This document shows, piece by piece, positions 18,086 to 21,873 of a DNA stretch of 64,000 nucleotides (within the stretch, counting starts at the first letter, position 1; every line of letters begins with the position of its first letter). The stretch lies in assembly GCA_963780375.1 (NCBI GenBank), contig CAWABV010000004.1, forward strand, positions 35,662 through 99,661. Direction: 5' to 3'. Both the position numbers and the translations under genes were made by a program. A model generated the notes under the pieces. The model ran no database searches and was not told the origin of the DNA. It was given only the letters and a program-made list of their open reading frames with translations. This DNA is from an uncultured Chloroflexia bacterium (GTDB lineage Bacteria > Chloroflexota > Limnocylindria > Limnocylindrales > CSP1-4).

Positions 18086-18774
18086 ATGACAGCGACCAGC
18101 ATCCGCGACCTCCCACAGCCCGAAGCGGTGATCTTCGACCTCGATGGCACGCTGGTCGACACGGTCGAGACGCGCATCGAAGCCTGGAAGCAGACGTTCG
18201 ACGAGATCGGGGTCCGACGACACGCGAGGAGCTCGAGCCGCTCATCGGTGTCGATGGCAAGCGGCTCGCGCGCGAGGTGTGCGCGCTCGCCGGCCAGCCG
18301 ATCGACGAGGCGCGCGCCGAGGTCATCGACAAGCGCTGCGGTGAGATCTACGAGGAGCTCAACAGCGACCCTCGGGCGCTGCCTGGAGTCCGTCGATTGT
18401 TCGACACGATCGACAGTCGCGGGCTCAAGAGCGCGATCGCGACGTCCAGCCGGAAAGAACAGGTGAAGACGTCGGTCGATGCGCTCGGACTCACGAAGGA
18501 GCCGACCATCGTCGATGCGAGCCACGTCGAGCACGCAAAACCGGAGCCCGATCTCTTGCTCCGCGCCGCGGAAGAGCTCGGGGTGGACCCATCAAGGGCG
18601 TGGTACATCGGCGATTCGACCTGGGACATGGGCGCGTCGGTGGCGGCCGCGATGATCCCGATCGGCGTCACCGCCGGTGCCGCGGTCTCGCGCCAGGCGC
18701 TCGAAGGCGCCGGCGCGGCGGTCGTGGTCGAGACGCTCGACGAGATCACGGACGCCCTGGCAGTGAGACGCTGA
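18086..18774 (+). CDS. HAD-superfamily hydrolase, frameshifted near 18215
   Basis: IFDLDGTLVDT (motif I); in the second frame IATSS, KPEPD, YIGDSTWD. Confidence 0.88.
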
Positions 18775-18855: not shown

Positions 18856-19569
18856 CTACCGAGCGCGCGCCTCGCGCAGCGCCTCGGCGACCCCTCGATC
18901 CCATGGATCGCCGTGGCCGACGAGCACCCACTGGGCACCGATCCCGTCGAGCCGCGCCCACGCGGCGCGAGCGCCCTCCGGGTCGAGCGTGAACGGCGCG
19001 ATCCGCGGGCCGACCTCGCCTGTCAACACGTTCCTGGTCGTCATCGCGTCCCCGACGAACACCGCGTCGACCGTCGGCACGTGGATCCCGACACTCCCCG
19101 GCGTGTGGCCCGGCATGTGGATGATCCGCGGCGAGCCGGGCAGATCCAGGGTCGCGCCGTCATCGAACGACACGAGCTCCGTGACCGGCGGGATCCGCAG
19201 GCCGCCGTTTCGACCTGTGTACCAGAGGAAGCTCAGCAACGAGCCGATCTTGATCGGACCCCAGCCACTGTTCGGCTTCTTGACCTCCGCCCGCGCCCGC
19301 GGCGCGTCGGCCTGGTGGACGAACACCGGCACGCCTCGTTCCCGGCGGAAGCGCTCGGCGAAGCCGACATGGTCCGTGTCGCCGTGGGTCAGGACGACGC
19401 CGCGGACGTCATCGAGCGATCGACCCATCGATGCCAGCTCGCCGGGGAGCTGCTTCCAGTAGCCGGGCAGGCCGGCATCGATGAGGGTGACGCCCGTCTC
19501 ATCGGCCACGAGATAGCTGTTGACGATGGTCGAGCCACCGAGTCGATGGAGCGACGGTCCGAGTTTCAC
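18856..19569 (-). CDS. Metallo-beta-lactamase fold hydrolase
   Basis: LIDAG, THGDTDHVG, PGHTPG, VGDA, VGHG; AGGAG RBS before GTG 19569. Confidence 0.9.
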   Translation of the reverse strand: MKLGPSLHRLGGSTIVNSYLVADETGVTLIDAGLPGYWKQLPGELASMGRSLDDVRGVVLTHGDTDHVGFAERFRRERGVPVFVHQADAPRARAEVKKPNSGWGPIKIGSLLSFLWYTGRNGGLRIPPVTELVSFDDGATLDLPGSPRIIHMPGHTPGSVGIHVPTVDAVFVGDAMTTRNVLTGEVGPRIAPFTLDPEGARAAWARLDGIGAQWVLVGHGDPWDRGVAEALREARAR

Positions 19570-19771
19570 CTGCGTTCTCCTGGGGCGTGCGTCCATCGAC
19601 GGCCGGCGCCTTCGACCGCGGACGTGCGGCTGACTGATGATGACGACCGCGACAAGGGCGTGCCTGACATCGCGGGACATCGGGATCGCACCCCGACGCG
19701 ACGAAGGGACCACGTCCCGCCGGGACGTCTTTCTACCCCAGGCACTTGCCAGCCGAGCCTAGACTCGACCG

Positions 19772-21118
19772 GTGGACCCGGCCGCCCAGACCTTCGTCCA
19801 ACTCGTCGCCCTTGTCCTGCTCGGGTTGCTGGTCGTGCGCATCCTGACGTCGCTCCCCGGCTGGCTGCGACGAGACCGCCGACCCGAGGCCCGGTCGATC
19901 ATGGTCGTCGGCGTCGGCGGTGGCGGCGGCAACGCCGTCGACCGGATGGTCGACGTCGGGCTCCCGACTGTCGGCTTCGTCGCCGTCAATACCGATGCCC
20001 AGGCCCTTCGTGAGTCACGCGCCGAACAACGCGTCCGCATCGGCGACCGTGTCACCCGCGGGCTCGGCTCAGGCGGAGATCCGGAGATCGGCCGCCGCGC
20101 CGCCGAGGAGGACGCCGAACGCATCGGCGCTGCCGTCGCGGGGGCGGATCTCGTGTTCGTGACTGCCGGACTCGGGGGCGGGACGGGCTCCGGCGCCGCG
20201 CCCATCGTCGCTGCCAAGGCCCGTGAGGGTGGCGCGCTGACGATCGCGGTCGTGACCAAGCCATTCGATTTCGAAGGGACGCCGCGACGCGACATCGCCG
20301 AGGACGCTGCTCAACGACTGCTCGCCGAGGTCGACGCGATGATCACGGTGCCCAATGACCGCATCGGCCAGGTCATCGACCCCGACGCATCCGCCCTCGA
20401 GGCGTTCCGGGTCGTCGATGAGGTGCTACTCAAAGGCGTCGAGGGTATCGTCGAGCTGCTCACGTCGCCGGGCCTCATCAACCTCGATTTCGCCGACGTC
20501 CGCTCGGTCGTCCAGGGTGCCGGTCCGGCGCTCATCGGTCTGGGCGAGGGCCACGGAGAAGGACGTGCGGTCGAGGCCGCGCGTCAGGCGGCGTCGAGTC
20601 CATTGCTCGAGGCCAGCATCAACGGCGCGCGCGGCGTGCTGCTTCACATATCCGGGCCGGCCGACCTGAGCCTGCGGGAAGTTCGGCAGGCCGCCGACGA
20701 GATCCGTGCCGCGGCCGATCCGCGCGCGAACGTCATCTTCGGTGCGAGCATCGGCGAGGTACCCGAGGGCGGGGTCCACATCACGTTGATCGCCACGGGG
20801 TTGGACGGCCACCGGCAGGCCGAGCCGCTGCCGCGGCCGACCCCGATCGCCCGCCCAGTGCCGCCCCCCGAGCCGGCCCTCGAGCCAGCCGGCGAGCCGG
20901 CCCTCGAGCCAGCCTCCGAGCCAGCCCCCAAGCCGGAAGCCACCGCTGCACCGACTCCTGCCGCGCCATCGACGACTCCGGCGCCCGACCTCCAACTCGG
21001 CCTCGACGAATCGCTCGACCTGCCGTCCTTCCTGCGCAACCCTCGCCCGACCTCGGGCACGGGACGTCGGCGCGACCCAAAGGATTCCCCGTCGCCGACC
21101 GGCTCGCGGTCGAGCTGA
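19772..21118 (+). CDS. ftsZ: Cell division protein FtsZ with an N-terminal hydrophobic (predicted TM) extension
   Basis: VVGVGGGGGNAV, NTDAQAL, GLGGGTGSGA tubulin signature, INLDFADV T7 loop, P/E/A linker, C-terminal LDLPSFLR peptide. Confidence 0.93.
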   Translation: MDPAAQTFVQLVALVLLGLLVVRILTSLPGWLRRDRRPEARSIMVVGVGGGGGNAVDRMVDVGLPTVGFVAVNTDAQALRESRAEQRVRIGDRVTRGLGSGGDPEIGRRAAEEDAERIGAAVAGADLVFVTAGLGGGTGSGAAPIVAAKAREGGALTIAVVTKPFDFEGTPRRDIAEDAAQRLLAEVDAMITVPNDRIGQVIDPDASALEAFRVVDEVLLKGVEGIVELLTSPGLINLDFADVRSVVQGAGPALIGLGEGHGEGRAVEAARQAASSPLLEASINGARGVLLHISGPADLSLREVRQAADEIRAAADPRANVIFGASIGEVPEGGVHITLIATGLDGHRQAEPLPRPTPIARPVPPPEPALEPAGEPALEPASEPAPKPEATAAPTPAAPSTTPAPDLQLGLDESLDLPSFLRNPRPTSGTGRRRDPKDSPSPTGSRSS

Positions 21119-21123
21119 CCGAG

Positions 21124-21792
21124 CTACGAGTCGGCTGGCAGCCGCTCCCCGGCCTCGATCCGCATCGGCAGTCGGTTCTCGGCGGGCGTCAGCGGGCAGG
21201 AATAGCGCGGGTCGTACACGCACGACGGGTGGTACGCGAGATTGAAGTCGAGCGAGTACGTCCCGTCGTCCTCGGGCTCGAGGTCGAGATACCGGCCCGC
21301 GCCGTATGTCTCACGCCCGCTCGTCGCGTCCAGGAATGGCACGAACAATGACTGCTCGTCACCGCCGTCGAAGGTATACGCAGTCAGCCCGTGCCGGTCG
21401 CCGTTGCGGTCGAAACGCAGGACGCCGGCGCGGTGCGCCGGTCGCAGCTGACCGTCCGATGTCGGGATCTGGAAGTCCGACGGCTCATCGCCGGTGTATG
21501 GCTCGAGGTCGATGTCCTCGAAGCGCCAGTCCGGATCGATCGCGTAGTAGGGCAACCCGGCGAAGGCCGCTCGCTCCCCCTCGGGTACCGGGCTATGCGG
21601 GTTCGACTGGAAGAAGGCGTCCTTGTCGGCGCGGAACTCCGCTAGGGCCTCCTCGTACGTGAGGACACGATGCTCGTGGTGATGGTGCTCGCCGTGGTCG
21701 TCGTCGCCATGGTCGTGGTCGTCGTGCCCGTGCTCCCCGTCGCCGCGGTCGTGCCCGGGCTCCGCGTGCCCGTGGTCGTGCTCTTCGGTCAT
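21124..21792 (-). CDS. DUF1684 family protein with a His/Asp-rich N-terminal tail
   Basis: LFVPFLDATSGRETYGAGRYLD, LDFNLAYHPSCVY..YSCPLTPAENRL; GGAGG RBS. Confidence 0.88.
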   Translation of the reverse strand: MTEEHDHGHAEPGHDRGDGEHGHDDHDHGDDDHGEHHHHEHRVLTYEEALAEFRADKDAFFQSNPHSPVPEGERAAFAGLPYYAIDPDWRFEDIDLEPYTGDEPSDFQIPTSDGQLRPAHRAGVLRFDRNGDRHGLTAYTFDGGDEQSLFVPFLDATSGRETYGAGRYLDLEPEDDGTYSLDFNLAYHPSCVYDPRYSCPLTPAENRLPMRIEAGERLPADS

Positions 21793-21873
21793 GTCGCCTC
21801 CGTCGCGCCATCGTGCGCGTCGGGGACTTCGCTGTCGACTCTGGTAGCCTCGCGCCCTCACCAGAGGGGGTAG

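Follow-up and report, generated by a model that had tools for sequence, protein, structure and literature searches.

How does an FtsZ that is encoded away from the division genes reach the membrane, and what could it do there? This question is raised by a gene of an uncultured Chloroflexia bacterium (Limnocylindrales, CSP1-4; GenBank assembly GCA_963780375.1). The window, that is, the whole stretch of DNA that was analysed, comprises 64,000 nucleotides (nt) of contig CAWABV010000004.1 (C4:35662-99661) in a genome of 3.56 Mb, 13 contigs and 91.5% completeness. It holds an ftsZ whose product begins with about 41 extra residues. The first-pass annotation of the window had read this product as a self-tethering FtsZ paralog, and at the level of sequence this reading is supported by the paralogy, the anchor, the conservation and the phylogeny. 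We think it probable, though well short of certain, that the gene is a lineage-specific second FtsZ of Limnocylindrales, a duplicate of the division ftsZ that carries an N-terminal signal-anchor and would tether itself to the membrane. The gene and its parts are as follows.

19760..19765, forward strand: -10-like hexamer TAGACT of the form TANNNT, 6 nt upstream of the start codon, a leaderless promoter candidate
19772..21118, forward strand: coding sequence of the putatively membrane-anchored FtsZ paralog, 448 amino acids (aa), GTG start, stop included
19772..19777, forward strand: short acidic N-tail (M-D), predicted extracytoplasmic, part of a conserved D-x-x-A-Q-T motif
19778..19852, forward strand: predicted single transmembrane (TM) helix, residues 3-27, with conserved Arg23 (AlphaFold2, hydrophobicity scales)
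19853..19897, forward strand: linker, residues 28-42, with PGW motif and basic patch LRRDRRPEAR, predicted cytoplasmic
19895..20377, forward strand: Tubulin/FtsZ GTPase domain, residues 42-202 (Pfam PF00091, E 1.6e-43)
19901..19903, forward strand: internal ATG (Met44, codon 44), alternative start
20174-20194, forward strand: G-box GGGTGSG, residues 135-141, invariant in 27/27 sequences
20480..20497, forward strand: T7 synergy loop N237-L-D239-F-A-D242, with N237, D239, F240, A241 and D242 invariant in 27/27 sequences
20522..20806, forward strand: FtsZ C-terminal domain, residues 251-345 (Pfam PF12327, E 1.4e-28)
20807..21013, forward strand: disordered Pro/Ala/Glu-rich linker, residues 346-414, variable in length and sequence, with a predicted local distance difference test score (pLDDT) <50 over most of 348-416
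21014..21037, forward strand: conserved C-terminal peptide LDLPSFLR, residues 415-422, a family motif
21038..21115, forward strand: basic C-terminal tail of 26 aa after the conserved peptide, seen in the sequence

The protein is an FtsZ in all its usual parts. The intact GTPase core, T7 loop, disordered linker and LDLPSFLR peptide described in the annotation are borne out by Pfam, by motifs and by the AlphaFold2 model. The start had been placed at 19760, where the hexamer TAGACT does sit; the coding sequence itself starts with GTG 19772, after a 6-nt spacer (CGACCG). A database protein of 448 aa (P0001) is 99% identical and has the same start. Tubulin and FtsZ_C are the only Pfam domains in the protein, with scores of 149.6 bits (cut-off 33) for PF00091 and 99.4 bits (cut-off 27) for PF12327. 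AlphaFold2, run on a 27-sequence family alignment, gave a confident FtsZ core at residues 43-345 (pLDDT mostly >90) and, after the disordered linker, a short helix at 419-422 in the C-terminal peptide. The closest solved chains are the ordinary FtsZs of Staphylococcus aureus (3wgj) and Bacillus subtilis (2vam). In 49 of the 49 solved FtsZ sequences that were matched, the alignment starts at query residue 37-44, so that nothing in the solved structures corresponds to residues 1 to about 40. An ESM Atlas search with residues 1-110 returned FtsZ clusters only, with a score of 0.85 that is too low to count, and it adds nothing.

The G-box region (G133-G141), the NTD motif and the T7 residues listed above are invariant across the 27-sequence alignment. 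When 30 anchored cores were compared with 31 canonical cores of family f1 over 325 positions, at least 90% conservation was found at 238 positions in the canonical set and at 120 in the anchored set. The same residue is conserved in both paralog classes at 111 positions, and the fixed differences between them amount to 10 positions, mostly conservative. By these residues, the core of the anchored FtsZ looks catalytically complete. The C-terminal motif [DE]-L-[DE]-[LVI]-P-[ST]-F-L-R is present in all 18 locus-derived rows of alignment A1. The canonical FtsZ of the same genome ends in ...DDLEIPSFLRRK, which resembles the C-terminal peptide of the paralog.

That canonical FtsZ is encoded on another contig (C5), where a search for a second ftsZ linked to the division and cell wall (dcw) cluster located it. 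It is 56% identical to the window paralog, and the identity of the two cores is about 58%. Upstream of it lie genes for a Mur ligase, mraY, ftsW, murG, ddl and ftsA, the last directly adjoining, and downstream a YlmE-like gene; this arrangement is the dcw cluster. In its location, its neighbours and its patchy presence, the anchored paralog differs from a dcw division copy. SepF (PF04472) was not found in a Pfam search of this 91.5% complete genome.

Where the paralog came from was addressed with a tree of 114 rows and 325 columns (IQ-TREE quick search, LG+C20 PMSF), which is midpoint-rooted and has long branches that call for caution. It contains 32 anchored rows, of which 31 were flagged by a Kyte-Doolittle screen and one (L095) was missed by it; the screen flagged 0 of the 82 canonical FtsZ rows. 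One canonical outgroup row (locus L073) is from an unpublished genome (G481). One clade holds 31 of the 32 anchored rows (30 of the 31 flagged and L095), with a support of 100 in the Shimodaira-Hasegawa-like approximate likelihood ratio test (SH-aLRT). This clade is nested among the FtsZs of Limnocylindrales, inside an order-level clade (98) and a class-level clade of Limnocylindria (99), and a long-branched representative (P0131) stands beside it in a polytomy. The paralog thus groups with division FtsZ and not with the FtsZ-like, CetZ or TubZ families, and the tree that the annotation had proposed is in line with its reading. The likelihood was better with all 32 anchored rows constrained to one clade than in the free search, and the approximately unbiased test did not reject the constraint (p 0.806). 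The topology is compatible with a duplication within Limnocylindrales that was followed by one gain of the anchor. Another N-terminal elaboration was seen in Chloroflexota family f32 (L091-L094, L056), where a second FtsZ paralog, long-branched in the tree, bears a conserved polar extension (...GFNPDRM...VVPQIV...) that differs from the TM anchor.

The anchored FtsZ is present in a minority of its family. With a profile of the first 75 positions, matches covering the extension were found in at least 32 of 301 family genomes and at least 11 genera (at least 31 of 300 when the unpublished genome G246 is left out), and at least 11 of 20 genomes of the window's own genus have an anchored FtsZ. The unpublished genomes G223, G698, G726, G593, G521, G302, G405 and G431 enter the tallies of searched genomes only. 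In two phylum-wide samples (301 and 401 genomes), the best 150 matches of each search were considered, with 310 and 452 further matches beyond these; among the matches listed, the extension was covered in genus g1 only and in none outside the family. Partial N-terminal matches in families f32 and f33 were examined as candidates for anchored FtsZs and rejected, their extension being polar or missing and without a TM segment. P0187 was likewise set aside: it was flagged by the screen, and its hydrophobic part lies only at the extreme N-terminus, about 100 residues from the G-box. In a search of 1.84 billion representatives at 50% identity, 11 of the best 150 have an N-terminal hydrophobic segment and a basic patch immediately ahead of the G-box. 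For one of these subfamilies, a relative with 78% identity is encoded in a metagenome-assembled genome that also holds a canonical FtsZ. Close relatives in the databases have 'Candidatus Limnocylindrales bacterium' or 'Chloroflexota bacterium' as their source names, and the databases label the family simply 'cell division protein FtsZ'.

The two copies have diverged at different rates. Over the same 66 pairs of 12 genomes that hold both, the median core identity is 73.6% for the anchored and 94.3% for the canonical copy, and in 65 of the 66 pairs, some of which compare different anchored subclades, it is the anchored copy that has diverged further. The anchored FtsZ evolves about 4-5 times faster than the canonical one. 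The anchored gene looks accessory: it is patchy in distribution, evolves fast, stands alone and in every case accompanies a canonical dcw ftsZ. Two further arrangements were noticed among its relatives. Genome G118 has two anchored paralogs from different subclades (L038, L041) in addition to its canonical FtsZ. The database proteins P0121 and P0124, with 826-840 aa and two FtsZ G-boxes each, are either tandem double-FtsZ fusions or fused gene calls.

A separate question is whether the extension is translated. If the start had been mis-called and translation began at ATG 19901 or nearby, the product would be a soluble FtsZ and the extension would stay untranslated. An FtsZ could plausibly begin with MVVGVGGGG, as it would from this start; a GAGG is found 11 nt ahead of the ATG, a few database entries have shorter N-termini (P0049, P0113), and one RNA-library contig crosses GTG 19772. 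Yet Met44 is found in 1 of the 27 family members aligned in A1, namely the window sequence, and the others have L, V or R at this position. The region upstream of the internal ATG also evolves as a coding sequence. In 55 pairs of 11 orthologs of the same length, extension codons 2-43 differ 817, 400 and 1014 times at codon positions 1, 2 and 3, and the median ratio of nonsynonymous to synonymous rates (dN/dS) is 0.37. An upstream control of equal length gave 1446, 1549 and 1451 differences and has no such periodicity. In 17 of 20 loci an in-frame stop codon lies 3 codons before the GTG or ATG (the exceptions, L033, L034 and L036, are loci with TACACT), and downstream of that point the reading frame is open in every locus. 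In five orthologs from the same genus the frame opens just 3 codons before the Val/Met start codon, and these five keep the hydrophobic run, the PGW motif and an RRxRRPE patch. A -10 hexamer at a fixed distance from the upstream start in 20 of 20 loci argues in the same direction.

The relatives agree with this. Each of the 20 related loci retains the extension. Of the 120 top clusters (90% identity) in a search of 5.8 billion proteins, 114 have the full hydrophobic N-terminus, with the same start called by several pipelines; of the remaining six, five are shortened or differently called and one is a canonical FtsZ. The annotation had allowed that the internal ATG might be the true start or that close homologs might lack the extension, and the relatives speak against both. 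The N-terminal extension is translated, as judged from these patterns of conservation, and a mis-called start is largely refuted and very improbable.

How translation starts can be read from the same loci. The leaderless start that had been proposed on the strength of TAGACT is backed by the conservation of the hexamer and by the enrichment of this arrangement in the genome. A TANNNT hexamer (TAGACT, TACACT, TAGCAT or TAGATT) precedes the start codon in 20 of 20 loci, with a spacer of 6 nt in 18 and of 7 nt in 2; the start codon is GTG in 18 loci and ATG in 2. With the hexamer only 6-7 nt before the start codon, a Shine-Dalgarno site would not fit in between. Among 12,768 candidate starts (ATG/GTG) of 2,821 long GC3-rich open reading frames (ORFs), TANNNT was counted 184, 116, 68 and 80 times at spacers of 6, 7, 8 and 9 nt, and about 6-29 times, mostly about 10, at each of the other spacers. 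This genome-wide peak makes TANNNT before the start a common gene-start type in this organism, with the anchored ftsZ in the modal class. The anchored ftsZ mRNA is thus probably leaderless from GTG 19772. As an observation on the genome as a whole, the pile-up at spacers 6-9 suggests that a substantial share of the genes of this Limnocylindrales genome are leaderless.

Parts of the gene are covered at low depth by contigs from RNA libraries of soil and rhizosphere metatranscriptomes (X15, X16 and X17); such assembled contigs carry neither strand nor transcript ends, and the uncovered parts are uninformative. X15 ends at 19751, and X16 (19683-19842, no mismatches) spans the proposed transcription start. 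Further upstream, a conserved motif that reads roughly GGAnnTTTCGTGC was seen at about 19722-19742 of the window, approximately 33-47 nt before the start of the anchored ftsZ, and a similar motif has the same position in several orthologs (L007, L008, L035-L040). Its distance from the -10 hexamer is too great for a -35 box; a regulator may bind there.

The next question is whether the extension can span the membrane. Its hydrophobic run FVQLVALVLLGLLVV, residues 8-22, had been called uninterrupted; the run is there, with one Gln inside. It is followed by the conserved Arg23, by ILTSLPGW and then by LRRDRRPEAR, and R36, P38, R41 and I43 of the linker are invariant or nearly so in the family alignment. 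The best Kyte-Doolittle mean over 19 residues is 2.51 for the window protein, the next-best segment elsewhere in the protein reaching 1.59, and it ranges from 2.4 to 3.2 in 20 of 20 loci. Summed crudely on a biological hydrophobicity scale, the segment gives no more than 0.5 kcal/mol in each of the 20 loci, even when the conserved Arg is counted. AlphaFold2 modelled residues 3-27 as a helix; the three 10-residue blocks of residues 1-30 have mean pLDDT values of 82, 94 and 77, and in the linker the pLDDT is <50 at residues 32-39. On the Eisenberg scale, the helices of all 20 loci have a mean hydrophobicity of 0.73-0.94 and a hydrophobic moment of 0.05-0.23 (0.73 and 0.11 in the window helix). 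High mean hydrophobicity together with a low moment means that the helix is uniformly apolar and not amphipathic.

The charges are arranged as the positive-inside rule would have them. The N-flank has a net charge of -1 in 19 of 20 loci and of 0 in one, and the C-flank, taken as the 15 residues after the segment, has a net charge of +2 to +5 in 20 of 20 loci. A basic flank, as had been pointed out behind the hydrophobic run, is kept in all of these loci. The hydropathy, the Eisenberg values, the AlphaFold2 model and the flanking charges all favour a TM helix. The N-terminal motifs differ by subclade (MDPAAQTFVQLV..., MPVPGEAVAV..., MEVLAQYFPLIV..., MDALAQNAPLVI..., MDWLTQYWPYL...). The hydrophobic sequence drifts between subclades, and its length, its apolarity, the acidic N-tail and the basic C-flank are kept. 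Drift of sequence with constant length and apolarity is typical of the evolution of TM segments. Since the architecture recurs in the 20 loci and the 114 clusters mentioned above, it is more than chance. The extension is thus predicted to be a TM signal-anchor with N-out/C-in topology, which follows from the positive-inside rule and is also the sole topology that keeps the GTPase cytoplasmic.

Two other roles for such a segment have to be weighed. It might be a peripheral, in-plane or oligomerisation helix that does not span the bilayer, comparable to those of Mycoplasma FtsZ and Odinarchaeota FtsZ1. Self-tethering FtsZs described so far use amphipathic helices, and Arg23 is conserved inside the hydrophobic stretch. 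The values in all 20 loci, however, fall in the transmembrane and not the surface-seeking Eisenberg region, 23-25 consecutive residues are mostly apolar, and the charge asymmetry is that of a signal-anchor; we regard a peripheral helix as improbable. A hydrophobic segment at the N-terminus could also be a cleavable signal peptide, by which the FtsZ would be exported and secreted or processed. This is scarcely credible: the charges are inverted (an acidic N-end, and basic residues after the hydrophobic stretch), about 23-25 hydrophobic residues are too many, there is no Ala-x-Ala, lipobox Cys or twin-Arg before the hydrophobic region, and a GTPase outside the cell would have no GTP.

Taken as a signal-anchored FtsZ, the paralog could work in the following way. 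Its leaderless mRNA would be translated from GTG 19772, residues ~3-27 would insert as a single TM helix, and the acidic N-tail would come to lie outside and the Arg-rich patch inside. The GTPase core would then be held at the cytoplasmic face of the membrane by a tether of just ~10-15 residues, and an adaptor such as FtsA, SepF or ZipA would not be needed. GTP-dependent polymerisation, alone or mixed with canonical FtsZ, would give filaments that hug the membrane, and the C-terminal peptide, on its linker of ~70 residues, would be free to recruit FtsA or other peptide-binding partners. With the anchor at the N-terminus, the membrane-facing side of the filament is predicted to be opposite to the usual one. 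We infer insertion, topology, polymerisation, partners and cellular role alike from the sequence.

A stronger version of this proposal is that the paralog is a natural inside-out FtsZ, with the opposite filament face and membrane curvature, and forms a second, adaptor-free remodelling machine distinct from the Z-ring in soil Chloroflexota of a widespread group. If so, its filaments could wrap and pinch membrane tubules that extend inward, or shape protrusions. We consider this doubtful. It is also possible, though unlikely, that the protein builds no cytoskeletal structure of its own and acts, perhaps under particular conditions, as a membrane-bound regulator that co-assembles with or caps canonical FtsZ and serves as a nucleator, a spatial regulator or a dominant-negative brake. 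For such a role speak its constant co-occurrence with canonical FtsZ, the core positions and C-terminal peptide common to both paralogs, the patchy and fast evolution that accessory regulators often display, and the fact that the gene stands alone, has its own promoter and is preceded by a conserved motif at which a regulator might bind. Against it stands the purifying selection on the complete GTPase and T7 machinery, for which a simple cap or a sequestering protein would have no use; nor is any neighbour gene linked to stress or regulation conserved. The regulator also overlaps with the self-tethering second FtsZ, and the present evidence does not separate the two.

Several points weigh against the self-tethering second FtsZ that we favour. 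Its fast evolution and patchiness also fit a decaying or neofunctionalised copy that no longer takes part in division. The TM helix is predicted from general hydrophobicity scales and AlphaFold2 rather than by a dedicated TM predictor, and it contains a conserved Arg, near its cytoplasmic end. The GAGG before the internal ATG might give rise to an extra soluble isoform in this one species. X16 would speak for a 5' leader if it represents sense-strand RNA, although carried-over DNA or a divergent or antisense transcript could also account for it. The evidence for expression is weak, as it consists of low-depth contigs in RNA libraries from two studies. Finally, the distant MDWLTQYW group has no clear C-terminal peptide, so that the recruitment of partners would not be universal in the family.

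No partner is evident among the neighbours of the gene. Two of them adjoin it and are not part of the system.

18856..19713, reverse strand: MBL-fold hydrolase, divergent neighbour (Pfam PF00753)
21124..21861, reverse strand: DUF1684 protein, convergent neighbour (Pfam PF07920)

These are the neighbours that the annotation had named, and Pfam agrees with it that ftsA, ftsQ, sepF and mur genes are missing alongside; no fts, mur or sepF genes adjoin the anchored ftsZ. Farther out lie genes for a DUF922 protein and a HAD hydrolase. Synteny with the MBL hydrolase and with DUF1684 is kept in just 3 of 17 paralog loci each, and a comparison of synteny together with a Pfam scan of immediate neighbours found no neighbour gene common to 18 paralog loci. 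Synteny holds only within subclades, as with HAD, MBL and DUF1684 in the window's group; other subclades have a PLP decarboxylase, an HtrA-like protease, an aminotransferase or an APH-type kinase. In one subclade (L035-L039, L049), the anchored ftsZ is convergent to clpX and divergent from valS. ClpX acts on the FtsZs of other bacteria, but this adjacency looks like a coincidence, given the gene orientation and the fact that it is not conserved more widely.

Two neighbouring gene models deserve a remark of their own. The MBL hydrolase ORF is probably over-extended, as conservation among orthologs covers about 229-241 of its 285 residues and the Pfam domain begins at residue 62; the real start may be an ATG near 19599, and the divergent intergenic region would then be about 170 nt. 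The HAD-family hydrolase gene upstream of the MBL gene (18086-18774, forward strand) is split over two frames near 18205-18215, with the part bearing the DxDGT motif I and the C-terminal part in different frames. Its ortholog in a genome of the same genus (L048) is one intact ORF. The split gene is either a pseudogene or the product of an assembly indel.

It remains to place the anchored paralog among known systems. It shares with canonical bacterial FtsZ the GTPase domain, FtsZ_C, the G-box, the T7 loop, the disordered linker and the C-terminal peptide. It differs in its extra N-terminal residues with the predicted TM anchor, in the 26-aa basic tail after the C-terminal peptide, in its location outside the dcw cluster, in its probably leaderless mRNA and in its presence in about a tenth of the family genomes. 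The annotation had started from the premise that bacterial FtsZ is soluble and tethered by adaptors. This premise is dated, as self-tethering by amphipathic helices has been reported in Mycoplasma FtsZ (bioRxiv 10.1101/2023.08.29.555414), in chloroplast FtsZ1 (as cited in the excerpted text of PMC12583498) and in Odinarchaeota FtsZ1. According to that same excerpt, Odinarchaeota FtsZ1 binds membranes via its own N-terminal amphipathic helix, is one of two paralogs with divided tethering modes, and was examined with its first 13 residues deleted (PMC12583498). The anchored paralog resembles OdinFtsZ1, as described there, in that the tether is part of the FtsZ polypeptide itself, is N-terminal and occurs in one of two paralogs. 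In contrast to the short, amphipathic and peripheral tethers of the self-tethering FtsZs, however, the present one is a uniformly hydrophobic segment of 23-25 residues that is predicted to span the bilayer, and the family is of unrelated, independent origin inside one bacterial order.

The side of the filament that faces the membrane matters since FtsZ filaments have a preferred curvature. When an artificial tether was moved to the other end of FtsZ, rings formed outside liposomes and not inside (Osawa and Erickson 2011, via the excerpted text of PMC5797765). By analogy with this reversal of the ring side, a natural N-terminal anchor would be expected to change the membrane-facing side. The engineered mts-FtsZ of such 'inside-out Z rings' is alike in having its tether at the N-terminal side of the core. 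As far as the excerpt describes it, the mts-FtsZ is an artificial construct with an amphipathic targeting sequence, studied on liposomes, whereas the anchored paralog is a natural gene with a predicted TM helix and a retained C-terminal peptide.

In the open-access literature searched, no description of an integral-membrane bacterial FtsZ was found, and the only TM-fused member of the FtsZ superfamily was a crenarchaeal FtsZ-like protein with N-terminal TM helices. As given in the excerpted text of PMC2875224, this protein is of the FtsZ-like-1 type, partly disrupted and poorly alignable, and only one is known. What it has in common with the anchored paralog is that an N-terminal TM region is fused to a protein of the FtsZ-tubulin superfamily; the present family, in contrast, is bona fide FtsZ with both domains intact and comprises at least 114 bacterial database clusters. 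The same excerpt describes FtsZl1 and FtsZl2 as divergent clades outside FtsZ proper with operon partners of their own, e.g., vWA proteins (PMC2875224), whereas the anchored paralog is nested within FtsZ proper and has no conserved operon partner.

The coupling of FtsZ to the membrane, and the side of the filament that faces it, are central to the debate on constriction force. Until now, only engineered FtsZs have had their tether moved to the other side, and the natural self-tethering FtsZs found in the papers use peripheral amphipathic helices. The anchored family could be a natural test of tether geometry, as a single polypeptide that should reconstitute on liposomes or nanodiscs adaptor-free, with the sister canonical FtsZ from the same cell serving as the comparison. 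Annotations as 'cell division protein FtsZ' hide what is predicted to be a distinct subfamily of membrane proteins, and the analysis also indicates that leaderless genes are common in this little-studied soil lineage. The interest is limited by its occurrence in uncultured soil bacteria and by a family known from sequence.

The closest parallel in topology is found among the bitopic FtsZ tethers and regulators ZipA and EzrA, which have an N-terminal TM helix and bind the C-terminal peptide of FtsZ. The anchored paralog shares with them the predicted arrangement, in which a single TM helix joins a short N-terminus on the outside to a cytoplasmic body, as well as the presumed job of holding filaments at the membrane. 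ZipA and EzrA are proteins separate from FtsZ, whereas here the predicted anchor is fused to FtsZ itself.

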